In this document: one piece after another, positions 738-53,753 of the stretch
How positions within the stretch are numbered: the stretch's first letter is position 1
Layout of the letters: every line of letters starts with the position of its first letter
Made by a program: the position numbers and the translations under genes
Notes under the pieces: generated by a model
The model's database searches: none
What the model was told of the DNA's origin: nothing
What the model saw: only the letters and a program-made list of their open reading frames with translations
Source of the DNA: an uncultured Candidatus Saccharibacteria bacterium
Lineage (GTDB): Bacteria; Patescibacteriota; Minisyncoccia; UBA6257; Colwellbacteraceae
Direction of reading: 5' to 3'
Assembly (NCBI GenBank): GCA_964360065.1
Contig: CAYHTW010000001.1
Coordinates: forward strand, 86,289 to 150,288
DNA length: 64,000 nucleotides

Positions 738-2509
738 ACGCCCAAAGACATTCCCTTGCCCATATTTTAGCGGCGGTGGTTTTGGAAAAGTTTCCTGCCG
801 CCAAATTTGGTATCGGCCCGACTATAGACAATGGCTTCTATTACGATTTCCAGCTTCCTAAAAACCTCGCCCCCGAAGACTTAAAAGACCTAGAGAAAGA
901 GATGAGACGGCTCGTCAGAATGAATCTGACTTTTACCGGTAAAAAAGTTACTCCCGTAGCCGCCAAGAAGGCTTTTTCTAAACAGCCTTTTAAGCTGGAC
1001 CTAATAAAAGAATTTGTTAATCCGCCAGCTGGCGGAAAAAAACAACCACTCACCGTCTATGACACGATTGATAAAAGAACCGGCAAAGTTTATTTCTCCG
1101 ACCTTTGCAAAGGAGGGCATGTCAAAAGTACCTCGGAAATAAACGCTGATGCTTTCAGGCTTACTAAGGTTGCCGGAGCTTATTGGAGAGGAGACGAAAA
1201 AAATCCCCAGCTGCAGAGAATCTACGGCATAGCCTTTCATCAAGAGCAGGAACTTAAAGATTACCAGGAGATGCTCCGCTTAGCTGAAGCAAGCGACCAC
1301 AGAAACCTAGCCGATAAATTGCAGCTGTTTATGGTTGACGAAGGCATTGGGCGAGGCCTCCCTCTTTGGCTGCCCAACGCCTTCACGACCAGGAAGGTTC
1401 TGGAAGACTATATATATGAGCTGGAGAGACGATCCGGCTACAAGCACGTCTTAACTCCACATCTAGCCAAAGAAGATCTCTATAAGACCTCCGGACACTT
1501 AGCTCACTATAAGAACGATATGTATGCTCCGCTTGAGATTGACGGCACTAAATATTATTTGAGGCCGATGAATTGTCCCCACCACCACAGCATCTATAAA
1601 TATTCCAAAAGAAGTTATCGTGAACTGCCTTTGCGTATTGCCGAATTCGGAACGGTATATCGCTACGAAAGAAGCGGCACTTTAAGCGGGCTTGTAAGAG
1701 TCAGGGGGTTTACGCAAAATGACGCGCATATTTATACCGATGAAGAAAGATTGGAGAGCGAGATAGTCGGAGTTTTGAAGCTGCACAAGAAAGTTTATGA
1801 AGATATGGGCATTAGCGACTATTGGTACAGATTGTCACTCCCAGACTTTAAGAACAATAAAGAAAAGTATGGTGACGTAAAAAACAAGGCCATGTGGGAA
1901 AAGGGTTCGGCTGTTTTGAGAAAGGCGCTGAAGGAGACCGGCCACAAATTCGTGGAAGCTCCCGGAGAGGCGACTTTCTACGGACCGAAAATTGATATCC
2001 AAATAAAAGATATTTACGGCAAAGAGGAAAGCATCGCTACAATACAAGTTGATTACTACTCTGCTGGTAAATTTAATCTGAACTACATTAGTAAAGATGG
2101 TAAAGAAAAGTCTGTCATTATTGTTCACCGGGCGATATTCGGATCATTTGATAGGTTCTTCGCTTTCCTTATAGAAAAGACCTCTGGCAACCTCCCGGTC
2201 TGGCTCGCGCCAATACAAGTAAAGATCTTAGCGGTAAGCGATAAACATTCGGAGTACGCTGAAAGTATTAATAAGAAACTAATGGAGGCAGGACTCCGAA
2301 GCGAAGTGGCGCCAAGCGATGAAACTTTGGGCAAGAGAATCCGCCAGGCTGAAATGCAAAGAATTCCCTATATAGCGGTTGTGGGTGATGAAGAAGTAAA
2401 AGCTGGCACAATGAGTATACGAGTACGAGGAGGGGGCACTGGAGGGCAAGTTACGCCAGAGAGCCTCATTGAAACTATCCGCAAGCAATCAGATAAGCTC
2501 TCTTCTTAA
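707..2509 (+). CDS. thrS: Threonyl-tRNA synthetase (no N-terminal TGS domain)
   Basis: HSLAHIL editing-domain motif, RDHRKL-like 'SDHRNLADKLQLF', class II motifs (MNCPHH, FRYERSGT), anticodon-binding C-terminus. Confidence 0.9.
   Translation: MQRSEKTNSLDAQRHSLAHILAAVVLEKFPAAKFGIGPTIDNGFYYDFQLPKNLAPEDLKDLEKEMRRLVRMNLTFTGKKVTPVAAKKAFSKQPFKLDLIKEFVNPPAGGKKQPLTVYDTIDKRTGKVYFSDLCKGGHVKSTSEINADAFRLTKVAGAYWRGDEKNPQLQRIYGIAFHQEQELKDYQEMLRLAEASDHRNLADKLQLFMVDEGIGRGLPLWLPNAFTTRKVLEDYIYELERRSGYKHVLTPHLAKEDLYKTSGHLAHYKNDMYAPLEIDGTKYYLRPMNCPHHHSIYKYSKRSYRELPLRIAEFGTVYRYERSGTLSGLVRVRGFTQNDAHIYTDEERLESEIVGVLKLHKKVYEDMGISDYWYRLSLPDFKNNKEKYGDVKNKAMWEKGSAVLRKALKETGHKFVEAPGEATFYGPKIDIQIKDIYGKEESIATIQVDYYSAGKFNLNYISKDGKEKSVIIVHRAIFGSFDRFFAFLIEKTSGNLPVWLAPIQVKILAVSDKHSEYAESINKKLMEAGLRSEVAPSDETLGKRIRQAEMQRIPYIAVVGDEEVKAGTMSIRVRGGGTGGQVTPESLIETIRKQSDKLSS
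1020..1037. repeat. GC palindrome family copy ATCCGCCAGCTGGCGGAA inside thrS (encodes PPAGG in frame)
   Basis: Exact CCGCCAGCTGGCGG core within coding sequence. Confidence 0.8.
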
Positions 2510-2515
2510 TCATCC

Positions 2516-3430
2516 ATGGAGAAGTTTAAAGTAATAGCCGTGGTAGGGCCGACCTCCAGCGGCAAAAGCGATCTGGCTGTGGAATTAGCCAGGCGTTTTA
2601 ATGGTGAAGTGATCTCGGCTGACTCCAGGCAGGTATATAAGGGTTTAAATATCGGCAGCGGCAAGATCACAATAAGCGAGATGAAAGGCGTGCCTCATTA
2701 TCTGCTAGATGTTTCTTCTCCGAAAGCTCCGCCGGCTGGCGGATTCACCGTATCTAAATACAAAGCATTGGCTGCGAAAGCCATCAATAAAATTATCAAA
2801 AAGCGTAAAGTACCGATTATCTGCGGCGGCACTGGGCTTTACGTTGATACTGTTCTTTATAACTGGCCGATACCAGAGGTTAAAGCTGATACGAAGCTGA
2901 GAGCCAAACTCCATTTGCAGAGCGCCGAGAAATTATTTAAGACATTGCAGAAACTGGATCCGAATAGAGCTAAAAATATTGATAGATTCAATAAGCTAAG
3001 ACTGGTGAGAGCCTTGGAAATAATAAAAACTACGGGCTCTCCTGTCCCCTACTTCCAACTCTTTGATTTAAATGCGTCGCCATACGAGATACTTAAAATA
3101 GGATTAAGGCCTAAAACTAAACTACTTAAAGAGAAAATAAGAAATCGGCTTCTGAAAATGATTAAGGCCGGAATGGTCAGAGAAGTTAGAAATTTAAAAA
3201 AGAATGGAGTGAATTCCAAAAGACTGGAAAGTTTCGGTTTGGAGTACAGATATGTTAATAGATATCTGGAGGGCCGGATTAGTAAAAACGAGATGGTGGA
3301 AGAACTAACAAGCCAGATAAATCATTATGCCAAGCGGCAAATGACCTGGTTCAAGAGAGATAAAAATACTATTTGGTTAGATGCTCCAGGAGCATCTTTT
3401 TCAAAAGTTCGGGATTTCCTCTCCCCTTAA
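2516..3430 (+). CDS. miaA: tRNA dimethylallyltransferase
   Basis: P-loop GPTSSGKS, ISADSRQVYKGLNIGSGK, GGTGLY motifs. Confidence 0.9.
   Translation: MEKFKVIAVVGPTSSGKSDLAVELARRFNGEVISADSRQVYKGLNIGSGKITISEMKGVPHYLLDVSSPKAPPAGGFTVSKYKALAAKAINKIIKKRKVPIICGGTGLYVDTVLYNWPIPEVKADTKLRAKLHLQSAEKLFKTLQKLDPNRAKNIDRFNKLRLVRALEIIKTTGSPVPYFQLFDLNASPYEILKIGLRPKTKLLKEKIRNRLLKMIKAGMVREVRNLKKNGVNSKRLESFGLEYRYVNRYLEGRISKNEMVEELTSQINHYAKRQMTWFKRDKNTIWLDAPGASFSKVRDFLSP
2727..2744. repeat. GC palindrome family copy CTCCGCCGGCTGGCGGAT inside miaA (encodes PPAGG in frame)
   Basis: CCGCCGGCTGGCGG core; the corresponding MiaA region looks about 4 aa longer than E. coli MiaA as I recall it. Confidence 0.8.
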
Positions 3431-4826
3431 GCTCACTCATCGCTTTACCTATTAAGAACTGAAGAGAAACCTCTTTGCCTTTTCTATAGTCCTCTACAGC
3501 CTTGGAATTGGCTTCAATGATCCTAACAATCGTCTCCCGTAGAGTTCCCTCGTCATGAATTTGTGTTAATCCCCTTTTTTCAATGATATCTGATGGGTCA
3601 CCTCCAGTACTAAACATTTCCGCAAGCACTATTTTAGCTGCAGATGAAGAAGTTGACCCTTCAAAGACTATTGTTATAAATTCTGCAAAGTTCCCTGGCT
3701 TAATCATATCCGCTAACGGTCCTCGTTTAGCGTTAGGTTGGGCAAATAAATATTGAATATCACCCATTAAATAATTTGCAGTCATTTTCATCATCCTAAG
3801 ATGTTCATCTCCTTTTTTAGGCAGATTTTTATCTTCAACCAAAATGTCCAATTCAGAAATAGCTTCTTCAAAATATTTAGCAAATTTTCTATCTGAAACT
3901 AAAACTTCTACGTCTTGTGCTGGCAAACCATATTCGGAGACAAACCTCTTCCTTTTCTCGGCTGGCAATTCCGGTATCTCAATCTGAAGATTCTGTATGA
4001 CATCTGCCGGAATCGTGACAGGCGGCAGATCCGGTTCGGGAATATATCTGTAGTCGTGGGCGTTCTCTTTGGTTCTTTGTGAAAAAGTTTCCATCTTAAC
4101 ATCGTCCCACCCTCTGGTTTCTTGTTTAACTTTTTCGCCAGCCTCTAAAACTTTGACCTGCCTAGTCACTTCATAAGCAATGGCGTTTTTGACAGCGCTG
4201 AAGGAATTGATATTTTTAAGTTCCACTTTATCTCCTAGCTTATCGGTTTTAGAAACAGAAATGTTAGGCTCAACTCTCATTTGGCCTTTTTCCATATCGG
4301 CGTCGGAAACTCCCAAGTAACGCAGGATGAGCTGTAACTCTTTGGCGAAAGCAAAGGCTTCGTCAGCCGACTCAATATCCGGGTCAGTGACAAGCTCCAT
4401 TAAAGGAATGCCCGCTCTATTATAATCAACATAAGAAGATTTGCCGTCTTGCCCGTGCAGCAAACGGGCTGTGTCTTCTTCCAAATGAATCCTAGTCAGT
4501 TTAACGCCGTTTAAAGAGCCTCCTACAACCAGTGGTTCGTCGTATTGGGAAATCTGATAACCTTTAGGCAAGTCAGGGTAGAAGTAATTCTTCCTATCAA
4601 ACTTGGAAGGGTTGCCTATCTTGCTTCCTAAAGCCAAACCGACTTTAACGACGGCTTCAACTGCTTTCTTATTAATGGTCGGCAAAACACCCGGATGAGC
4701 CAAGCAGATGGGGCAAATATTCAAATTGGGGATCTTTTCGTCCGGATCGTTCTTGCAGGAACAAAACATCTTAGACTCCGTCTTAAGTTCCGCGTGTATT
4801 TCTAGTCCTATAATAGTTTTATACAT
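3369..4826 (-). CDS. gatB: Asp-tRNA(Asn)/Glu-tRNA(Gln) amidotransferase subunit B
   Basis: N-terminal IGLEIHAEL...KMFCSC motif, full-length GatB-like 485 aa. Confidence 0.9.
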   Translation of the reverse strand: MYKTIIGLEIHAELKTESKMFCSCKNDPDEKIPNLNICPICLAHPGVLPTINKKAVEAVVKVGLALGSKIGNPSKFDRKNYFYPDLPKGYQISQYDEPLVVGGSLNGVKLTRIHLEEDTARLLHGQDGKSSYVDYNRAGIPLMELVTDPDIESADEAFAFAKELQLILRYLGVSDADMEKGQMRVEPNISVSKTDKLGDKVELKNINSFSAVKNAIAYEVTRQVKVLEAGEKVKQETRGWDDVKMETFSQRTKENAHDYRYIPEPDLPPVTIPADVIQNLQIEIPELPAEKRKRFVSEYGLPAQDVEVLVSDRKFAKYFEEAISELDILVEDKNLPKKGDEHLRMMKMTANYLMGDIQYLFAQPNAKRGPLADMIKPGNFAEFITIVFEGSTSSSAAKIVLAEMFSTGGDPSDIIEKRGLTQIHDEGTLRETIVRIIEANSKAVEDYRKGKEVSLQFLIGKAMSELKGRGNPELLKKMLLEHLTK

Positions 4827-4850
4827 TATTACAATTATAAACTTTATTCC

Positions 4851-4882
4851 GGAAACAAAAAACGGGGCTTCCTATCCCCGTT
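4851..4882 (-). terminator. Rho-independent terminator candidate downstream of rplK (GC stem aacgggg/ccccgtt followed by T-run on minus strand)
   Basis: Hairpin AACGGGG-N8-CCCCGTT then TTTTGTTTCC when read on minus strand. Confidence 0.5.
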
Positions 4883-5013
4883 CCTACAATAGGACTTACA
4901 TAAACAGATGCAGTTCTAGGAGCACGAGTAAAATGGAACGAAATGTACTGATATAAGTACATTGAGCGAGATTTTACGCGGTGCGACAACGAAATGCGCT
5001 GTTTGTGTAAGTC

Positions 5014-5439
5014 CTAACTTACATCAATGCCCATACTGCGGGCGGTACCGGCGATAATCTTCTCGGCTGCTGCGGCGTCGTAGGCGTTCAAATCAACCAT
5101 TTTACGCTCAGCAATTTTCTTAACATCAGCTCGACTCACTTTACCTACCTTAGTTTTATTAGGTACGCCTGAGCCTTTCTCCACCCCAGCGGCTTTTCTT
5201 AGTAAATCCGAAGCTGGAGGAGTCTTCAATTTAAAAGTGAAAGACCTGTCCTCAAAGATGGTAATCTCGGCCGGGACGATGTCGTTACCCATTTCTTTAG
5301 TAGCTTCATTAAACTGCCTGCAGAATTCCTGGATATTCACACCCTGGGGGCCTAGGGCTGTACCAATCGGAGGAGCTGGATTAGCTTTGGTGGCCTCAAT
5401 TTGGATCTTTATTATTGTTTTTACTTTCTTAGCTGCCAT
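5014..5439 (-). CDS. rplK: 50S ribosomal protein L11
   Basis: Near-canonical L11 sequence ([28 protein letters not shown]). Confidence 0.95.
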
Positions 5440-5455
5440 AGGACTATTATTATAT

Positions 5456-6010
5456 TTAATTTTTTTTGATTTGCAATGAGTCCAGCTCCACGGCAGTATC
5501 CCGGCCGAAAACCGGCACTAAAACCTTAACTCTGCCTCTCGACTCATCAACTTCTGAAATCTTACCATCATAATCCTTGAATGGCCCGTCAGTTATTCGA
5601 ACCATCTCACCAATTCTGAAATCAACTTTAAATTTAGGCTCATCTCCGCTCATCCTGGCCTTCAAAGATTCTACCTCTTCATAAGACAAAGGCGTGGGGC
5701 TTGTGCTGTCAGATCCCACGAAACCAGTAACACGAGGAGTGTTGCGAACCACGTACCAGGAATCGGGCTCCATAATCATTTCCACTAAAACATAACCAGG
5801 ATAGATTTTCTCTTCTGTGGTAGTTCTCTTACCAGCTTTAATCTTAATACTCTTCTCTTTAGGAACGATGATGTTAAAAATTTTGTCGTTCATCGCCAAT
5901 GACTCAACCCTTTGCTTTAAGTAACGAGAAACGGCGTCTTCGTAACCGGCGTACGTGTGAACCGCGTACCAGCGTCTTAAATCAGTTTTTTCTTCTTTGA
6001 CGGCTTTCAT
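5456..6010 (-). CDS. nusG: Transcription termination/antitermination factor NusG
   Basis: [14 protein letters not shown]-domain start, C-terminal KOW ([22 protein letters not shown]). Confidence 0.9.
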
Positions 6011-6011
6011 A

Positions 6012-6200
6012 TTAAATCTTCAAGACTCTCTCCAGGATAGTAATAAATATATAGTCCAAAGCTCCCAAAAAGGCCGCCACAAAAATGGAAATAGCAATCA
6101 CAACTATAACCATTTTAGTGGCTTCTTTTCTGGTGGGCCAGTTGATACGTTTAAATTCCTCCTGGGACTCGGCTAAAAAGAGCCTGATTCGGGTAAACAT
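6012..6200 (-). CDS. secE: Preprotein translocase subunit SecE
   Basis: 62-aa single-TM protein with INWPTRKE motif, immediately upstream of nusG as in the conserved secE-nusG-rplK cluster. Confidence 0.8.
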   Translation of the reverse strand: MFTRIRLFLAESQEEFKRINWPTRKEATKMVIVVIAISIFVAAFLGALDYIFITILERVLKI

Positions 6201-6227
6201 TATTTATGTAGAATAGTAAAAAATCGC

Positions 6228-8201
6228 CTATAAATCAAGGTTGGCGACTTGATGGCCCTTACTCATGATGAAGTGCTTCCTAGGCATCACTTCCGAACCC
6301 ATCAAAATATCAAAGAGTTTGTCGGCTTCGTGGGCATCTTCTACCGTGATTTGTTTCAGAAGACGGGTAGCCGGATCCATAGTAGTTTCCCAGAGTTGAC
6401 CCGGGTTCATCTCTCCCAAACCCTTGTAACGCTGGATATTAACATTGGCTGCTTTTCCGCCCGAGGCGCCTGCCTGTCCGGTAGGCAGGGATCCGCCTTT
6501 GGCGGAGAATTCTTTGAGGACTACGTCCTTCTCTACATCATCAAAAGCATATTTCACGGTCTTACCGGCGGATAACCTGTAGAGAGGAGGAGTAGCTATA
6601 TAGAGATACCCCGCTTCTATGATTTTAGGGAAATGGCGATAGAAAAGACTTAGCAGCAATGTGCGGATGTGAGCTCCATCAACGTCGGCATCGGTCATAA
6701 TTATAATCTTGTGATAGCGAATTTTAGCAAGATCAAACCCTTCGGCGATAGCTGTACCTAAAGCGATAACCAGGGACCTGATTTCTTTGTTGGCCAAAAT
6801 TTTATCGACCCTCGCTTTTTCCACATTCAAAATCTTGCCTCTTAAAGGCAGAATAGCTTGGAACCTTCTGTCTCTTCCTTGCTTGGCGCTGCCTCCGGCC
6901 GAATCCCCTTCAACTAGGAAGAGCTCCCCTTCTTCGGCTTTTCTGGTTTGGCAGTCGGAAAGTTTTCCAGGTAAAGCCAAACCCTCCAAAATACCTTTCC
7001 TTAAAATAGTTTCCTTGGCGGCTTTAGCGGCAGCGCGTGCTTTAGCGGCCAAAAGAGATTTGCCGACAATGGAACGGGCATCATTAGGGTGAGTTTCTAA
7101 GTATGACTTCAGGGCATCGGCTACTACGGTTTCTACAGCGCTTCTGGCTTCCGTATTACCTAACCTCGCTTTAGTCTGGCCTTCAAACTGCGGGTCGCGG
7201 ATTTTGACTGATATTATAGCGGCCAGGCCCTCTCGCACGTCGTCCCCCGTCAGATTATCTTCTTTTTCTTTAATATAACCTTCTTTCCTGCCATAGTCGT
7301 TTAGAACTCTAGTCAGAGCCGTACGGAAACCGGTTAAGTGCATACCGCCGTCGGTGGTATAAATGTTATTGGCGAAGGACATCTCTTTAATCTCCATGCC
7401 TTCGTTGTAAGAGAAGGCTACTTCCACGCCAACTCCTTCATATTCTTTTTCAACATAGAAAATGTCGTTTTGGATTAGCTTATCTCCACCATCATTCAAG
7501 TAATCCAAGAAGGACTTGATGCCTCCATCAAATTTAAAAGCGTGATAGAAAAGAGCTTCGTCGCGCTCATCTATAAGAACAATACGCACTCCCTTAGTAA
7601 GATAGGCTTGATCTCGGAGATAATCCAAAATCTTTTTTCTCTCAAACTCGGTCTTGGGGAAAATACTTTTATCAGGCAAAAAAGTTACCTTGGTGCCGGT
7701 ACGGTATCCCTTGCCCTCTTCTTTAACTTTTCCCTGGGGGACGCCTCTTTTATATTCTTGGGCATAAAGTTTACCATCACGGGTTACTTCAACCCTAAGC
7801 CAGTCTGACAAGGCATTAACCACTGAAACGCCTACGCCGTGCAAACCTCCAGAAACTTTATAAGCTTCTCCTCCGAATTTTCCTCCGGCATGCAAAACCG
7901 TCATAACAGTTTCCAAAGTAGATTTTTTGGTCTGCTTATGAGCTTCAATCGGTATACCCCTGCCGTTATCCAAAACGCTCAAGAGATTGTCTTTCAGGAT
8001 CCTGACTTCAATGTCATCAGCAAAGCCAGCCGTCGCTTCATCAATGGCGTTATTAACAACTTCCCAAACGAGATGGTGCAAGCCAGCCACATCAGTCGTT
8101 CCAACGTACATACCTGGTCTCTTGCGGACAGGGTCTAAGCCCTCAAGAACTTGAATGTCTGCGGCCGTATATGAGGTTGGTTTTTTGTCTTCTTTAGCCA
8201 T
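6228..8201 (-). CDS. gyrB: DNA gyrase subunit B (type IIA topoisomerase ATPase subunit)
   Basis: GHKL ATPase N-terminus (LEGLDPVRKRPGMYVGTTD), TOPRIM (EGDSAGG), 657 aa; GyrB vs ParE cannot be separated without phylogeny. Confidence 0.85.
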   Translation of the reverse strand: MAKEDKKPTSYTAADIQVLEGLDPVRKRPGMYVGTTDVAGLHHLVWEVVNNAIDEATAGFADDIEVRILKDNLLSVLDNGRGIPIEAHKQTKKSTLETVMTVLHAGGKFGGEAYKVSGGLHGVGVSVVNALSDWLRVEVTRDGKLYAQEYKRGVPQGKVKEEGKGYRTGTKVTFLPDKSIFPKTEFERKKILDYLRDQAYLTKGVRIVLIDERDEALFYHAFKFDGGIKSFLDYLNDGGDKLIQNDIFYVEKEYEGVGVEVAFSYNEGMEIKEMSFANNIYTTDGGMHLTGFRTALTRVLNDYGRKEGYIKEKEDNLTGDDVREGLAAIISVKIRDPQFEGQTKARLGNTEARSAVETVVADALKSYLETHPNDARSIVGKSLLAAKARAAAKAAKETILRKGILEGLALPGKLSDCQTRKAEEGELFLVEGDSAGGSAKQGRDRRFQAILPLRGKILNVEKARVDKILANKEIRSLVIALGTAIAEGFDLAKIRYHKIIIMTDADVDGAHIRTLLLSLFYRHFPKIIEAGYLYIATPPLYRLSAGKTVKYAFDDVEKDVVLKEFSAKGGSLPTGQAGASGGKAANVNIQRYKGLGEMNPGQLWETTMDPATRLLKQITVEDAHEADKLFDILMGSEVMPRKHFIMSKGHQVANLDL

Positions 8202-9759: not shown

Positions 9760-9777
9760 CTCCGCCAGCTGGCGGAT
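9760..9777. repeat. GC palindrome family copy: CTCCGCCAGCTGGCGGAT (intergenic)
   Basis: Exact 14-bp palindrome CCGCCAGCTGGCGG with conserved flanks; same motif at 1020, 2727, 31624, 53659. Confidence 0.8.
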
Positions 9778-9918: not shown

Positions 9919-12345
<2,427 letters not shown>

Positions 12346-31565: not shown

Positions 31566-31586
31566 TACCCGCCTCGAGGCGGGATA
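31566..31586. repeat. GC palindrome family variant TACCCGCCTCGAGGCGGGATA
   Basis: 16-bp perfect palindrome CCCGCCTCGAGGCGGG, same CCGCC..GGCGG architecture. Confidence 0.65.
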
Positions 31587-31623: not shown

Positions 31624-31641
31624 TCCCGCCAGTTGGCGGAT
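31624..31641. repeat. GC palindrome family copy TCCCGCCAGTTGGCGGAT
   Basis: One mismatch from CCGCCAGCTGGCGG. Confidence 0.75.
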
Positions 31642-45076: not shown

Positions 45077-45098
45077 GTTTATTATTTTACCCCCACAC

Positions 45099-45359
45099 CT
45101 AATCGATTTTAAGACTTTTAGTAATTCTTCGTTTTAGTTGATTTAAAGCGTTAGCTCGCAATTTTAAATTATGTTCTCTGTGTCTGGCGTCCTCTTCCGA
45201 CTTATATGCCTCGCAATACACAAGCTCAAAAGGCGAACGATATTTTGTTGAACGACTTAATCCTTTGTTGTGTTCTAAAAGTCTTCTTTTCAAATTATTA
45301 GTGGAGCCGATATACAACTCTTTATCTACTTTACTCCTAATAATATAAACACAGAACAT
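45099..45359 (-). CDS. GIY-YIG nuclease family protein (YhbQ/UPF0213-like, 86 aa)
   Basis: VYIIRS..LYIGSTNNLKRRLLEHNKG GIY-YIG motif. Confidence 0.8.
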   Translation of the reverse strand: MFCVYIIRSKVDKELYIGSTNNLKRRLLEHNKGLSRSTKYRSPFELVYCEAYKSEEDARHREHNLKLRANALNQLKRRITKSLKID

Positions 45360-45383
45360 TAATTAAATCGATTAGGTGTGGGG
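45100..45383. mobile_element. GIY-YIG cassette bounded by perfect 20-bp terminal inverted repeats (CCCCCACACCTAATCGATTT / AAATCGATTAGGTGTGGGGG)
   Basis: IRs at 45100-45119 and 45364-45383; inserted exactly between xseA stop and xseB start; IRs supply the last codons of xseA (NPHT*) and of the GIY-YIG ORF (KID*). Confidence 0.55.
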
Positions 45384-46856
45384 GTTAATTTTCTTTATTT
45401 CCGACTCTACTTCTCCTTTATATAGCCTAGTTTTCAACTTCTCCCCTACTTTGAGGCCAGAGGTGTCTCTGACCACTTTACCAGAATTGTCGGTCACGAT
45501 GCTATACCCAAGCTTCAGATTTCTTTCCGGGCTCACTCCTTCCAGGTATTTACCGACATTCTCTACGCTCTTTAGAGCTGCCTCCAAAGCGCTTTCGTAT
45601 GAGTCTATAATAGACGATTTAAGGTTCTCAAACTTAACGAAGGCTCTTTCAAAGTAGCTTGTCATCTTGGACAGCGAAGAACCGACAAAGTTGTCGGCAG
45701 AACGAATACAGCCTTCGTAACGGTTAAAAATTGTCACCTCAAGTGAAGGCAGGCGAACAGTCAGTTTATCCCAAGAGGCATTTACTCTAATAGCAGCTCC
45801 TGTAGGAGTTGAGGGGGCGTCGTCTCCGACGAGACTTGAGATAGGAACGTCCTTGTGGTGGCCTATGGCGCAAATAGTGGGCACCCTAGAGGCAAATATG
45901 GCTTTAGCAACCAGTTCGTTATTAAAGGCTTGCAGGTCTTCTAGGCTTCCGCCGCCACGCATTACCACCATCACATCAAGTTTCATTCTTTCGGCGTTGC
46001 TGTTAAACCAAGAGAGAGCTTCGCAGATATCGTCCACCGCTCTGACTCCCTCCACTCTGACGTCTTTGAGGAAAACCTCAAAGCCAAGTTCTCTGAGGTT
46101 GTTTTTAAAATCCTCTATGACTGCTCCCTGGCGTGAGGTAACTACACCAATTCTTTTAATAAACTCGGGTAATTCTCTTTTTCTGGTGAATAAGCCTTCC
46201 TTTTCCAGCTTGGCCTTCAGGAGTTCGTAAGCTTTTTTAAGAGACCCTTCGCCGGTTAGCTCAAGAGTTTGAATGGTAAAACTAAACTTACTGGTCCTTT
46301 CTATAACTTTCGGGAAGCCTCCTACTTTAACTTTCATCCCCTCTTCCAGCTCCAAACCAAGGCTATCGTAGGTATAAAGCCTCATATAGCACTCCATTAT
46401 CCCTTCACCGCTTTCATCTTTTAAAGTTATATAAACTCCGGTGGTGTGTAATTTAATTGTCACTATTTCTCCGCAAACAGAAACATTCTGAGAATAAAGA
46501 ATGCTATTTACCTTGCTCAAAAATTCTCTGACCGAAAAAATAACTTCGCCCGTTTCGGTGAACTGTGTATTTTTCTCTTCTTCTTTTTTGAACGCCCAAC
46601 TCGATTCACCTTTAGTGATGGCTAAAATAGCCGGACCAAGCTCTTTGAGCTTCTTAGGGCCGATTCCTTTTATGCCTTCTAATTCTTTTAAAGTCTGCGG
46701 CATAGACTCGGCAATGAAATCTATTGTTTTATTCTGGAGAATTTTAAATCTCTCCTGGCCTGTCTTTTGCGCCAAGTCGTTTCTTAGGTCGGTGAGCCGT
46801 CTTATCGCCAACCAATTTTTATTTCTAAAGCTTTCAGCGAAGGGCAGAGTATCCAT
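45372..46856 (-). CDS. xseA: Exodeoxyribonuclease VII large subunit with about 100-aa N-terminal HhH extension
   Basis: OB fold + GVVTSRQGAVIEDF catalytic core; extra N-terminal LKELEGIKGIGPKKLKELGP HhH. Confidence 0.85.
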   Translation of the reverse strand: MDTLPFAESFRNKNWLAIRRLTDLRNDLAQKTGQERFKILQNKTIDFIAESMPQTLKELEGIKGIGPKKLKELGPAILAITKGESSWAFKKEEEKNTQFTETGEVIFSVREFLSKVNSILYSQNVSVCGEIVTIKLHTTGVYITLKDESGEGIMECYMRLYTYDSLGLELEEGMKVKVGGFPKVIERTSKFSFTIQTLELTGEGSLKKAYELLKAKLEKEGLFTRKRELPEFIKRIGVVTSRQGAVIEDFKNNLRELGFEVFLKDVRVEGVRAVDDICEALSWFNSNAERMKLDVMVVMRGGGSLEDLQAFNNELVAKAIFASRVPTICAIGHHKDVPISSLVGDDAPSTPTGAAIRVNASWDKLTVRLPSLEVTIFNRYEGCIRSADNFVGSSLSKMTSYFERAFVKFENLKSSIIDSYESALEAALKSVENVGKYLEGVSPERNLKLGYSIVTDNSGKVVRDTSGLKVGEKLKTRLYKGEVESEIKKINPHT

Positions 46857-48272: not shown

Positions 48273-48346
48273 TAATAAACACAGTAACAAAAAACACCCG
48301 CCTTAGGCGGATGTCTCTGGTTTATTCTGAACTCGTGAAGGCGTAC

Positions 48347-51227: not shown

Positions 51228-53753
51228 CTAGACAACTAGGTTAATAAGCCTATTAAGAACGAACACTATTTTAGTTATGTTTTTACCTCTGATGTACCTC
51301 TCTACGCTCTGGTCTTTTAGGGCTAAGGCAATCGCTTCTTTTTCTGTTAAGCCAGCGGAAGCCCTGACCTTAGCCCGAAACTTGCCGTTAACTTGTATCA
51401 CTAAATCAAAGTGATCTTCCTTAAACAATTTCTCGTTATATTCTGGCCACTTTTCTTTATGAATAGTTTTTTTGTTTTTTAGCTGACTCCAGAGTTCTTC
51501 GGTGATGTGAGGGGCAAAAGGAGCTAAGAGTTTCAAGAAAGATTCAAATTGCTTTTTAGTAATGGCTCCGGAACGCTTTTCAAAATCATTCAAGAGAATC
51601 ATCAGGGTTGAAATGGCAGTGTTATAACTAAGAGACTCAAGGTCGTCCCCTACTTTTTTAATAGTCTTGTTAACCAGTACATCAAGCTTAGCTTCGGCCT
51701 TAGGGGCGAATTTCTTAGTCTGGCCGATTACCCAGACTCTTTCAAGGAACCTGGTAATACCTTTAACGCCGCTGTCGCTAAAGTCTCCCCCATCTTCAAA
51801 TGGACCAAGAAACATCAAATACATTCTTAAAGCATCAGCGCCAAAGTTTTTAATGTACTCGTCTGGATTAACCACGTTACCCTTTGATTTGGACATTTTA
51901 CTTCCGCCTTTGATGATAAGGCCGTGGGCCCTGAACTTATGGAAAGGTTCCTCAAAATTAGTCAGTTTCATATCTTTAAAAAACATTGCCAAGAAACGAA
52001 CGTAAAGTAAATGTAAGACGGCGTGTTCCGCTCCACCGATGTACATATTCACTGGCAGCCATTTTTTTATTAACGCCTTATCAACGATGAATTTTTGATT
52101 TTTGCCGCCCAATTTTATTGAACGAGCCTCGCCCTTTCGGGGCGGGATTTTTGATTTTTGATTTCCGAGGATAAGGTATCCGAGGTAATACCAAGCAGAA
52201 TCCAGGAAGGTGTCTGATACGTCTGTCTCACGTTTCCCCCAGCTTTTACACTTAGGGCACCTGACTTTGTAGAAAGACTCAACTGAGGCTAATGGAGACT
52301 GATCTGTACCGGTGGGCCTGAAGTTTTTCACATAAGGCAGTTTAACCGGCAAATTCTTTTCGGGCACAATATACCAGCCCGGCATATCTTCCCTTTCGCC
52401 AAAACCCCTGCCCGCACAGGCTTTACAGAAGATCATCGGTATGGGCGGACCCCAATATCTCTGCCTGGAGATAAGCCAATCCCTTAATCTATACTGTGTC
52501 TGTTTTTTAGCGCCAATTTGTTTTACTATCGCGTCTTTAGCATGGTCCGAAAACATCCCATTAAACTTATGGGAATTAATCAAATGTCCGGTGCCGATAT
52601 AAGCCCGCTCATGTTCATTACAAGCTTCGTTATGCTCTTTGGGACAGACAACAACGCGTATGGGAAGCTTAAACTTATGAGCGAACTCAAAATCTCTCTC
52701 ATCGTGAGCAGGTACTGCCATAATAGCTCCTGTGCCAACATTACCCAAAACATAGTCTGATATCCAGACTGGAATTTTTTCTCTGCTCCCGGGATTCACC
52801 GCTGAAACGCCAGAAAAAATCCCCGTCTTTTCGGTTGTATTTTCTCTTTTGGCGGATGACCTGCGCGCTAGAGCACCAGCGACATACTTTTTAACTTTTT
52901 TGTCCGCCTGCCAGCCAATATCAAGCCATAGCTTCGCGCGCTCGGGAGAGATAACCATAAATGTGGCACCGAATATGGTATCGGGGCGCGTAGTGAATAT
53001 TTCTAGCGAATGTTTATCATTCTTCTGCACAGGAATATCAATCAGCGGGAACGTAATTAAAGCGCCTTCCGAACGTCCTATCCAGTTTCTCTGGGCTATT
53101 TTTACTTTTTCAGACCAATCAATTTTATCCAAATTATTAAGCAATCTTTCCGAGTAATCGGTGATCTTGAAAAACCATTGTTCCAAGTCTCTATTGATAA
53201 CTTCGGTACTACAGCGTTCGCACTTGCTGTTAATAACCTGCTCGTCGGCCAATACGGTTTTGCACGATGGGCACCAATTAACCGGAGACTTCTTGCGGTA
53301 AGCCAAACCGCGCTTGAACATTTGAGTGAAGATCCACTGTGTCCACTTATAGTAAGCCGGGTCATAAGTAGCCAGGGCCTCTTTCCAAGCAAACCCGTTG
53401 CCAATAAGTTGGAGCTGACGGTAAAAATTCTTTTGGGAAATCTTAGCTTGTTCGGCTGGGTGACGACCAATTTTAATAGCATAGTTTTCGGAGTGTATTC
53501 CGAAGCCGTCCAAACCGATTGGTTCAAAGACATCGTTACCCTGCATTCGCTTGAAGCGACCATAAATATCCGTACCTGTAAAAGCATACATATTGCCAAC
53601 ATGTAGCCCCTCAGCCGAAGGGTACGGAAACATCATTAGATTATAGAAGGGTTTTTTGCTCCGCCGGCTGGCGGATTTCCAGTCCGGCTCATAGGTTTTT
53701 TCGGCAAGCCATATTTTCTGCCACTTCTTTTCTATCTTAGAAAAAGGATACAT
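51228..53753 (-). CDS. leuS: Leucyl-tRNA synthetase
   Basis: HVGN (HIGH-like), KMSKS, editing CP1 domain; 841 aa. Confidence 0.9.
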   Translation of the reverse strand: MYPFSKIEKKWQKIWLAEKTYEPDWKSASRRSKKPFYNLMMFPYPSAEGLHVGNMYAFTGTDIYGRFKRMQGNDVFEPIGLDGFGIHSENYAIKIGRHPAEQAKISQKNFYRQLQLIGNGFAWKEALATYDPAYYKWTQWIFTQMFKRGLAYRKKSPVNWCPSCKTVLADEQVINSKCERCSTEVINRDLEQWFFKITDYSERLLNNLDKIDWSEKVKIAQRNWIGRSEGALITFPLIDIPVQKNDKHSLEIFTTRPDTIFGATFMVISPERAKLWLDIGWQADKKVKKYVAGALARRSSAKRENTTEKTGIFSGVSAVNPGSREKIPVWISDYVLGNVGTGAIMAVPAHDERDFEFAHKFKLPIRVVVCPKEHNEACNEHERAYIGTGHLINSHKFNGMFSDHAKDAIVKQIGAKKQTQYRLRDWLISRQRYWGPPIPMIFCKACAGRGFGEREDMPGWYIVPEKNLPVKLPYVKNFRPTGTDQSPLASVESFYKVRCPKCKSWGKRETDVSDTFLDSAWYYLGYLILGNQKSKIPPRKGEARSIKLGGKNQKFIVDKALIKKWLPVNMYIGGAEHAVLHLLYVRFLAMFFKDMKLTNFEEPFHKFRAHGLIIKGGSKMSKSKGNVVNPDEYIKNFGADALRMYLMFLGPFEDGGDFSDSGVKGITRFLERVWVIGQTKKFAPKAEAKLDVLVNKTIKKVGDDLESLSYNTAISTLMILLNDFEKRSGAITKKQFESFLKLLAPFAPHITEELWSQLKNKKTIHKEKWPEYNEKLFKEDHFDLVIQVNGKFRAKVRASAGLTEKEAIALALKDQSVERYIRGKNITKIVFVLNRLINLVV
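52090..52172. repeat. In-frame hairpin element inside leuS: TIRs CCGCCC/GGGCGG with internal stem-loop, flanked by tandem GATTTTT heptamers
   Basis: gaatttttgatttttg|CCGCCCaattttattgaacgagcctcgccctttcgGGGCGG|gatttttgatttttgatttcc; corresponds to about 20 extra aa (..NQKSKIPPRKGEARSIKLGGKNQKF..) relative to E. coli LeuRS as I recall it. Confidence 0.55.
53659..53676. repeat. GC palindrome family copy CTCCGCCGGCTGGCGGAT inside leuS N-terminus (encodes SASRR)
   Basis: CCGCCGGCTGGCGG core. Confidence 0.8.

Follow-up and report, generated by a model that had tools for sequence, protein, structure and literature searches.

A double-hairpin insertion in the leuS gene of a Patescibacteria genome and its likely relatives in other genes

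Rickettsia palindromic elements (RPEs) are short palindromic repeats that lie in frame in unrelated housekeeping genes, are translated, and are compatible with the fold and function of the host protein (PMC10969869). Mitochondrial GC clusters are G+C-rich hairpin mini-elements of ~30-80 nucleotides (nt) in A+T-rich genomes, in which the stems are conserved and the loops vary; one of them, GC42 of yeast, is 42 nt long (PMC4478555). The same source, in the passages that cite Paquin et al. 2000, ascribes a double-hairpin architecture to the Allomyces elements. Repetitive extragenic palindromes (REPs) are described as imperfect G+C-rich palindromes of 20-40 nt that are often paired and can act as terminators (PMC3733652). 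Here we describe a two-hairpin segment in leuS, the gene for leucyl-tRNA synthetase (LeuRS), within a 64,000-nt stretch of DNA (hereafter the window) from an uncultured Candidatus Saccharibacteria bacterium (contig CAYHTW010000001.1 of assembly GCA_964360065.1, positions 86,289 to 150,288). Comparison of sequences identifies this segment as an insertion that is present in this lineage and missing in close relatives, and we consider it likely to be one copy of a dispersed family of GC-rich double-hairpin mini-elements of 42-45 nt in AT-rich bacteria of the Patescibacteria type.

The leuS insertion and its absence from related genes

The host gene lies on the minus strand at 51228..53753 and encodes 841 residues; it was identified from the list of open reading frames (ORFs) and their translations, from Pfam domains and from homologues, and its product matches LeuRS structures in the PDB at E = 1e-185. 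The original prediction, made from the letters of the DNA, had placed a hairpin segment inside this gene, and the segment is indeed there, in a window with a G+C content of ~43%. Its GC-rich block with inverted ends, given then as 41 bp, measures 42 nt or 14 codons (52104-52145, minus strand), with one boundary C ambiguous. On the coding strand the site reads AAATCAAAAATCAAAAATC, then the element CCGCCCCGAAAGGGCGAGGCTCGTTCAATAAAATTGGGCGGC, then AAAAATCAAAAAT, which by codon is GGA AAT CAA AAA TCA AAA ATC / CCG CCC CGA AAG GGC GAG GCT CGT TCA ATA AAA TTG GGC GGC / AAA AAT CAA AAA TTC and in peptide G N Q K S K I / P P R K G E A R S I K L G G / K N Q K F; the element itself is translated as PPRKGEARSIKLGG (residues 537-550). 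Tandem heptamers flank it as predicted, in numbers other than the two and three GATTTTT units then counted: on the plus strand the left array is AATTTTT GATTTTT (52090-52103), in which the first unit has a mismatch and the second is exact, and the right one holds 2.7 copies (52146-52164) according to Tandem Repeats Finder (TRF). Read in the direction of leuS, these form an upstream half-array AAATC(AAAAATC)2 at 52146..52164, encoding NQKSKI, and a downstream half-array AAAAATCAAAAAT at 52091..52103, encoding KNQK(F).

The loop gain of about 20 residues attributed to the segment proves to be 21, of which only 14 come from the GC element. The block from DSAWYY to YIGGAEH comprises 60 residues in the query, against 39 in its canonical form, and alignment with the LeuRS of Thermus places the 21 additional residues between WYYLRY and W(M/L)PV; the remaining 7 residues, equivalent to three heptamers, belong to the array-type loop. 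Identical leuS DNA is present in one European Nucleotide Archive assembly and one Logan assembly of Hainich groundwater data, whose underlying datasets may overlap. Since the element recurs in these further assemblies, it is not an artefact of a single assembly.

The organism is of the Parcubacteria type within the Patescibacteria. We compared 120 listed LeuRS sequences, the query (P0001) and 119 others, most of which have the canonical 39-residue block DSAWYYLRYPSVKEKxKPW...KKWLPV..YIGGAEH. The peptide PPRKGEARSIKLGG occurs in none of the 119, and the syntenic relatives at 86% and 79% identity are without the segment. A HMMER search with the loop over 1.84 billion representative proteins returned seven matches, none with the PPRKGEAR insert; one of them, P0124, carries another hairpin family. 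The closest relative is P0002 (locus L006), 86% identical and syntenic. Across ~2,400 residues of five syntenic housekeeping genes, the query and L006 differ by internal indels at two leuS sites only, both GC-rich and palindromic (12 nt at codons 29-32, and the loop), and the four neighboring genes have no indel. The alignment of LeuRS orthologues thus reveals a polymorphic insertion, not an ancient feature shared by close relatives, and the view of the segment as an element inserted in frame is borne out by this absence from the 119 listed sequences together with the related copies found elsewhere.

An empty form of the site also exists. The uninterrupted array NQKSKIKNQK[FS], that is LGYLILGNQKSKIKNQK[FS], occurs in P0024, P0005, P0063 and P0077, with a unit number equal to the sum of the two halves in the query. 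At the DNA level the genes of P0024 (L004) and P0005 (L013) read AAT CAA AAA TCA AAA ATC AAA AAT CAA AAA T, which is the query minus 42 nt (array without interruption, AAATCAAAAATCAAAAATCAAAAATCAAAAAT). As an array with the same unit count exists empty, the net insertion is exactly 42 nt and involves no target-site duplication. The suggestion that the heptamers are target-site duplications fails on these empty arrays and on the four copies outside arrays (L009, L018, L021 and L023, introduced below), which have no flanking direct repeat. Clusters at >=90% identity were looked through for empty-site alleles, and every member had the same length.

Nucleotide identity along the gene reveals a short mosaic patch around the insertion, at ~codons 517-560 (52074..52205, minus strand). 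Within it, identity to L006 is 24-69%, against 83.5% gene-wide, whereas L004 and L013, only 63-69% identical to the query over the gene as a whole, match it at 94-100%; its edges are the conserved DSAWYY and WLPV..YIGGAEH blocks. The explanation that best fits such a pattern of identities is recombination over a short patch, the partner being a leuS of the "LGYL + heptamer" type. The heptamer array would then have entered this lineage recently, within a recombined patch of ~130 nt from another leuS type, and the 42-mer may have come along with the patch or later.

Copies of the element in other genes

The predicted fold of the 42-mer consists of the hairpin CGCCC/CGAAA/GGGCG and the hairpin GC.CGUUCAAU/AAA/AUUGGGCGGC. 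Hairpin 1 (52130..52144, minus strand) has 5 pairs that show no variation across all six family copies, and hairpin 2 (52104..52127, minus strand; GC.CGTTCAAT / AAA / ATTGGGCGGC) was delimited by comparison of those copies. The block termini CCGCCC and GGGCGG stand 29 nt apart. The proposed fold check gave two hairpins at -17.2 kcal/mol with z = -2.07, a modest value alone, and with flanks the fold is not better than that of shuffles (z = -1.3 sense, +0.6 antisense). The pattern CCGCCC-N10-40-GGGCGG has one match versus 0.05 expected, and GATTTTTGATTTTT, with <=1 mismatch, has four versus 0.26 expected (0 of 100 shuffles gave four). The best Rfam score is 16.5 bits versus a gathering score of 55, so that no Rfam family matches. 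For the insertion, comparison among sequences carries the decisive weight, rather than these chance and fold tests.

To find further copies, the 20-mer CCGCCCCGAAAGGGCGAGGC was scanned over 596 Gb of species-representative genomes, which gave 6 loci, and over a metagenome collection, which gave 14; the query genome is part of neither. In 12 matches, on contigs of 54-69% G+C, the common sequence ends with the 20-mer, and L011 (54% G+C) has nothing in common past it. At all six loci of 35-42% G+C, which represent four distinct sequences (L009 and L019 are duplicates, as are L021 and L030), identity runs on as TCGCC(variable hairpin)GGCGGC. Every family copy consists of CCGCCCCGAAAGGGCGAGGCTCG and a second hairpin with a varying stem and compensatory changes. 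The common plan is an invariant 5' portion of 23 nt (CCGCCCCGAAAGGGCGAGGCT, comprising hairpin 1 and a linker), followed by a CGCC-variable-GGCG hairpin and a terminal GC, for a total of 42-45 nt. The search for other copies in genome and metagenome collections, which the original prediction had proposed, thus yielded related ones.

The copies lie in unrelated genes, in different frames and in both orientations. The copy most similar to that in leuS, CCGCCCCGAAAGGGCGAGGCTCGCCCAACAAAGTTGGGCGGC at L029, is also 42 nt long, is identical at 38 of 42 positions, and is read in a different frame (PAPKGRGSPNKVGR) within a class I tRNA-synthetase gene read as valS; its flanks, AAATCAAAAATTAAAAATC and AAAAATCAAAAAT, are the same heptamer flanks as those of the leuS copy. 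The L023 copy is read in the third frame (RPERARLAQSRWAA) in ligA, and alignment of this LigA with that of the window opens a 17-residue gap that holds the 14 element-encoded residues. Two copies are antisense and give ASLALSGRE, one in a radical-SAM gene (L021) and one, of 45 nt, in a UvrD/PD-(D/E)XK gene (L018). The L009 copy is intergenic, at a locus labeled Patescibacteria from another Hainich well (H43). A partial copy in yidC (L024, on a contig of 47% G+C) makes a seventh low-G+C locus. Five of the six complete copies, and the partial one, are inside ORFs; the complete coding copies measure 42, 42, 42, 42 and 45 nt, all multiples of 3, and the intergenic copy 43 nt.

All six complete copies have the same 5' end (CCGCCCC right after TC) and the same 3' end (GGCGGC), with L009 preceded by TTCCC. 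Five are directly preceded by (A/T)TC, and TTCCC of L009 fits only with a 2-nt boundary shift, a weak regularity given a 2-nt motif and n = 6. The base 3' of every copy is A or T. The two-hairpin fold is common to all copies. A covariance model, R1, scores the query and the other copies at 55-69 bits (E = 1e-10 to 1e-13); the query itself reaches 64.7 bits (E about 1e-12) and can be aligned with the five others over the full length, in a model built from these same sequences. In hairpin 2, 4 pairs are altered on both sides and 93% of cells are paired, values that were reached by 5-8 of 500 shuffles.

From these comparisons we infer that the element moves, or once moved, as a discrete unit, and several observations weigh against that reading. 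No second copy is present within the 64-kb window by pattern search or model R1, which also found no additional copy in 125 kb of related loci; each of the six or seven known copies is in another organism, and multiplicity within a genome is the usual hallmark of a transposable element. The covariation comes from six sequences aligned to the model's own structure, and it is supportive rather than conclusive. Two of the six copies share their phase in near-identical heptamer arrays, for which a composite unit and a strong target preference are inseparable. The taxonomy of L018, L021, L023 and L029 comes from base composition and gene content only. Finally, tblastn searches of 312 kb with IS200 TnpA and RAYT (REP-associated tyrosine transposase; YafM) queries gave no match below E = 0.5, which is a weak test.

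A protein census with concatenated six-frame translations of the intact 42-mer returned 10 word-sharing candidates, none at E <= 10, the peptides being too short for the tool. With the 61-residue loop peptide as query, no protein had three 5-residue words in common with it, and even the query LeuRS was missed, so this result carries no information. A scan of viral contigs with the 20-mer gave 0 matches, and BLAST of the region against phages matched low-complexity heptamers only.

The query copy looks like a decaying one, with a second hairpin eroded by C>T changes. Relative to the L029 form, GC.CGCCCAAC/AAA/GTTGGGCGGC, its hairpin 2 shows three C>T and one G>A differences, two of which together replace a C-G pair by T-A. 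Of all the second hairpins in the family it has the lowest stability (-9.9 versus -14 to -19 kcal/mol with DNA parameters). The intact 42-mer is G+C-rich and therefore free of stop codons in all six frames; in the eroded copy of the query a TAA has arisen in two frames that are not used, one sense and one antisense. In an AlphaFold2 model of the query LeuRS (60-sequence alignment, mean predicted local distance difference test (pLDDT) score 81.7), the stretch from residue 532 to 553, which separates helices 515-529 and 559-565, has pLDDT < 50 and is devoid of secondary structure. Most simply, the model suggests that the element is a tolerated, translated extension of a surface loop, and a function proper to the element is unlikely.

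Two of the loci have further features. At L009, perfectly complementary inverted repeats of 135 nt and 197 nt lie at 1104-3054 and 3052-7153, where they bracket a 533-residue ORF (read as a serine recombinase) and a 3.7-kb segment beside tRNA-Gly and tRNA-Thr; this arrangement could be invertible DNA or an assembly effect. The UvrD/PD-(D/E)XK protein of L018 has, at ~residues 90-160, a long Gly/Pro/Arg/Ala-rich stretch (GLPGGLHSPDRAKRGTPRRVASK...KPSAKRGSATKGKRKTG) that may represent further GC-rich insertions.

Heptamer arrays and TCCGCC palindromes

We ran TRF on the window and on 13 related loci (188 kb in all). Period-7 arrays are numerous within genes, with units that include AAAAATC, AAAATCC, GAAATTC, AATTTCC, AAATCCC and AAGTTTA. 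Their copy numbers cluster at 4.3-5.1 (about 4.6 copies, ~33 nt), with a few at 7.0-7.3 and 9.7-9.9; the leuS array minus the element has 4.7 copies, the usual size in these genomes. In the in-gene arrays inspected, the coding strand is the stop-free strand, and a 7-nt unit read over 21 nt yields one heptapeptide whichever of the three frames is used (for AAAAATC, KNQKSKI). In-gene arrays are also present in L003, L004, L015, L016, L021 and L029; their density varies, from 6 in the L015 leuS to few in the window, where ligA carries an (AAAATCC) array of 4.6 copies (11440-11471, minus strand). That repeats kept in threes preserve the frame, as had been remarked, holds only trivially, in that array-type loops are 3 units (+7 residues) longer than canonical ones: frame conservation accounts for steps of three units, not for how arrays begin. 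We found no account of such in-gene heptamer arrays in the literature searched, whose coverage was incomplete. A reading of the 42 nt as six mutated heptamers (six times seven) was rejected, since positional similarity is lacking and the same 42-mer occurs outside arrays.

A separate set of palindromes shares the habit of lying within genes. The strict pattern TCCGCC-N3/4-GGCGGA has 5 matches in the window versus 0.1 expected, and with close variants included, palindromes of 15-16 nt lie at 1021-1036, 2728-2743, 9761-9776, 31568-31583, 31625-31640, 48297-48311 and 53660-53675. Three are in frame, in thrS (1021, NPPAGGK), miaA (2728, APPAGGF) and the N-terminal part of leuS (53660, KSASRRS), and the others are intergenic. 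The leuS palindrome, TCCGCCAGCCGGCGGA (SASRR; 53660..53675, minus strand), is a 12-nt insertion at codons 29-32 relative to the 86%-identical orthologue. In gyrB (6228-8201, minus strand), three successive in-frame GC hairpins at ~6456-6506, TCCGCCAAAGGCGGA, CCTGCCTACCGGACAGGCAGG and CGCCTCGGGCGGA, encode SAKGGSLPTGQAGASGG, ~10 residues more than in solved GyrB; the site resembles a TCCGCC pair of 30 nt into which, behind a TC, one more hairpin has been nested.

A 30-nt tandem pair of this kind, TCCGCCAAAGGCGGA + TCCGCCTCGGGCGGA, occupies the same AAAAATC^AAAAAT junction of leuS in L015, L003 and P0124, where it is translated as PPKADPPRAE (L015), SSEGGSASGG in another frame (L003) and SAKGGSAFGR (P0124). 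Near the N-terminus of leuS, an A-rich spot after YEPDxKxA (53658-53675 in the window; also L004 and L016) holds GC hairpins in 3 of 9 genes examined. The three hairpins differ (TCCGCCAGCCGGCGGA, TCCTCCAGCCGGCGGA and GCCTGCCCGACCAGGGCGGC) and their flanks are without sign of shared ancestry, so that the spot, judged by sequence, looks like an insertion hot spot. The L003 leuS (P0098) has, in addition, a pair of 15-nt hairpins at ~2966-2995, CCAGCCAGAGGCTGG + TCCGCCTCTGGCGGA, encoding PARGWSASGG, and a SARGG motif at the C-terminus of the L029 ValRS marks a further in-gene hairpin. The 42-mer had been thought possibly a longer member of this palindrome family. The two are the same kind of in-frame element and share the array junction, but they have the CCGCC/GGCGG core alone in common and unrelated interiors; on their sequences, we assign them to different families.

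Two side observations concern neighboring subjects. An 86-residue GIY-YIG ORF (45099-45359, within 45090-45384, minus strand) lies between xseA-like and xseB-like genes, with one arm of a perfect 18-nt inverted repeat on either side (CCCCCACACCTAATCGAT at 45384-45367, ATCGATTAGGTGTGGGGG at 45107-45090); the region looks like a small mobile cassette. As the L009 copy stands 30 nt upstream of a small GIY-YIG gene, a link between such genes and the element was considered, and it was set aside because the 18-nt repeats of the cassette are unrelated to the element. Among the LeuRS sequences, P0016, P0031, P0039, P0076, P0078, P0087, P0090, P0098 and P0101, and likewise P0054, P0062 and P0111, have an extra NUDIX (PF00293) or alpha/beta-hydrolase (PF06821, PF00561) domain; these Patescibacteria proteins are all 950-1090 residues long.

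Origin of the element and comparison with known systems

The conserved hairpins, the lack of duplication and the constant 5' flank suggest an enzyme that recognizes single-strand hairpins. By analogy with the IS200/IS605 or REP/RAYT manner, we tentatively propose a hairpin-recognizing single-strand DNA enzyme as the mover, a proposal that may well prove wrong. Copies would insert just 3' of TC, without duplication, where the DNA is rich in A/T, and junctions between the units of (AAAAATC)n arrays are among such places. Copies that are G+C-rich, stop-free and a multiple of 3 in length would survive in genes, merely adding to a surface loop 14-15 residues, many of them Gly, Pro, Arg or Ala. A broader and doubtful extension of this scheme is that one DNA insertion process in Patescibacteria coding DNA has two products: GC hairpin mini-elements, among them the 42-nt family and the 30-nt TCCGCC pairs, and the ubiquitous ~33-nt in-gene arrays. 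The arrays would be landing pads or footprints of this process, by which surface loops of essential proteins would be continually remodeled and the remodeled loops spread by short-patch recombination.

The arrays might instead be part of the mobile unit. The heptamers would then be subterminal repeats, or 7-bp target duplications accumulated through repeated insertion and excision, and the unit would be array, hairpins and array. The leuS copy and the L029 valS copy do agree in their flanks, with AAATCAAAAAT[C/T]AAAAATC to the left and AAAAATCAAAAAT to the right, and lie at the same unit junction; the junction is occupied in the leuS genes of L003, L015 and P0124 by the other hairpin family (TCCGCC-N3-GGCGGA, twice); and arrays of varied unit and near-constant size (~4.6 copies) are common in these genes. 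We nonetheless regard this composite unit as rather unlikely. The copies at L009, L018, L021 and L023 are without heptamer flanks or direct repeats, and four LeuRS lineages have an uninterrupted array of equal unit count; moreover, 42 nt plus a 7-nt duplication would break the frame, and an array passing through a stage of 2 or 3 units would shift the frame of an essential gene.

Capture of filler DNA is an unlikely source for the insert. On this account the array is fragile and slippage-prone, and template switching or repair synthesis fills its breaks with GC hairpins copied from elsewhere, which have no transposition of their own. The assortment of inserts fits it, as at least 8 of 13 extended LeuRS loops hold GC-rich inserts of differing sequence within heptamer arrays, and so does the failure of the tblastn searches, a weak test over 312 kb, to find a mobilizing enzyme. 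Random capture would leave ragged ends, and the six copies across genes and organisms have uniform 5' and 3' ends; two of them are equal in length and identical at 38 of 42 positions.

Still less probable is local selection of a nucleic-acid structure, be it an intrinsic terminator that halts antisense transcripts crossing leuS or a fold in the mRNA that sets the pace of translation. On the plus strand, hairpin 1 followed by the T-rich heptamers forms a site of 8 pairs (6 G-C), CTCGCCCTTTCGGGGCGGG then ATTTTTGATT (52128..52156), that ranks first among terminator-like sites at 46-58 kb. In the sense RNA, the changes in hairpin 2 of the query retain pairing through G-U pairs and one compensatory exchange. 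The terminator-like site is probably incidental, since the family copies outside arrays have no T-run; the element is also found in six further settings, inserted in either orientation and mostly without such a run, the fold with flanks is no better than shuffles, close relatives do without the element, and Rfam has no match. A loop extension of 14 residues evolved in place and selected in LeuRS is very improbable: the site is a known variable surface loop that is extended in many Patescibacteria LeuRS, but the same DNA is read in other frames and antisense in unrelated proteins, and the segment is predicted to be disordered and is absent from all other LeuRS examined.

Palindromic selfish DNA within protein genes is best known from Rickettsia and organelles; here it appears at a far smaller size (42 nt) in Patescibacteria, a very large and little-studied group with streamlined genomes. 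Its hosts are aminoacyl-tRNA synthetase genes, a DNA ligase gene and other core genes, and the separate palindrome family reaches gyrase B. The element could supply some of the many small lineage-specific protein insertions in these bacteria, and such inserts can mislead alignments, phylogenies and gene models from metagenome-assembled genomes. It also serves as a marker of recent recombination between lineages, points to a putative hairpin-recognizing enzyme, and draws attention to heptamer arrays of near-constant length that encode the same peptide in all three frames. A literature search of incomplete coverage, which leaves novelty unproven, brought up no prior description of hairpins inserted into protein-coding genes in Patescibacteria or in the candidate phyla radiation; the family is apparently undescribed, and the kind of selfish DNA is known.

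Among bacterial systems, miniature inverted-repeat transposable elements, or MITEs, are likewise small and non-autonomous, with inverted repeats longer than the terminal complementarity of 5-6 nt found here, where target-site duplication is also absent. REPs, and the bacterial interspersed mosaic elements (BIMEs) considered with them, are extragenic, begin with a GTAG or CGTC head and have a RAYT encoded in the genome; the leuS element begins with CCGC and ends with GGC, has neither head, and most of its copies lie in ORFs. With IS200/IS605 derivatives it shares hairpin ends and the lack of target duplication, and a position 3' of a fixed short motif (TC) would be a further, weakly indicated likeness. 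It is far shorter and has no left and right end pairs, although its two hairpins could take the parts of such ends, and no TnpA was found in the sequence searched. The resemblance to RPEs lies in the in-frame position in unrelated genes and in presumed translation as an extra peptide, and it is functional only: RPEs measure ~100-150 bp, are confined to Rickettsia and encode one conserved peptide per family, whereas this 42-nt element of Patescibacteria-type bacteria has two G+C-rich hairpins and is read in at least three sense frames and antisense. In size, in G+C-rich hairpins within an A+T-rich genome and in its double-hairpin plan, it resembles the mitochondrial GC clusters and the Allomyces elements. 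Those elements belong to organelles and lie for the most part between genes, GC42 is flanked on each side by an AG target dinucleotide, and the mitochondrial elements called byps are skipped by the ribosome; the element described here, by contrast, is bacterial, inserted without duplication, in frame and presumably translated.

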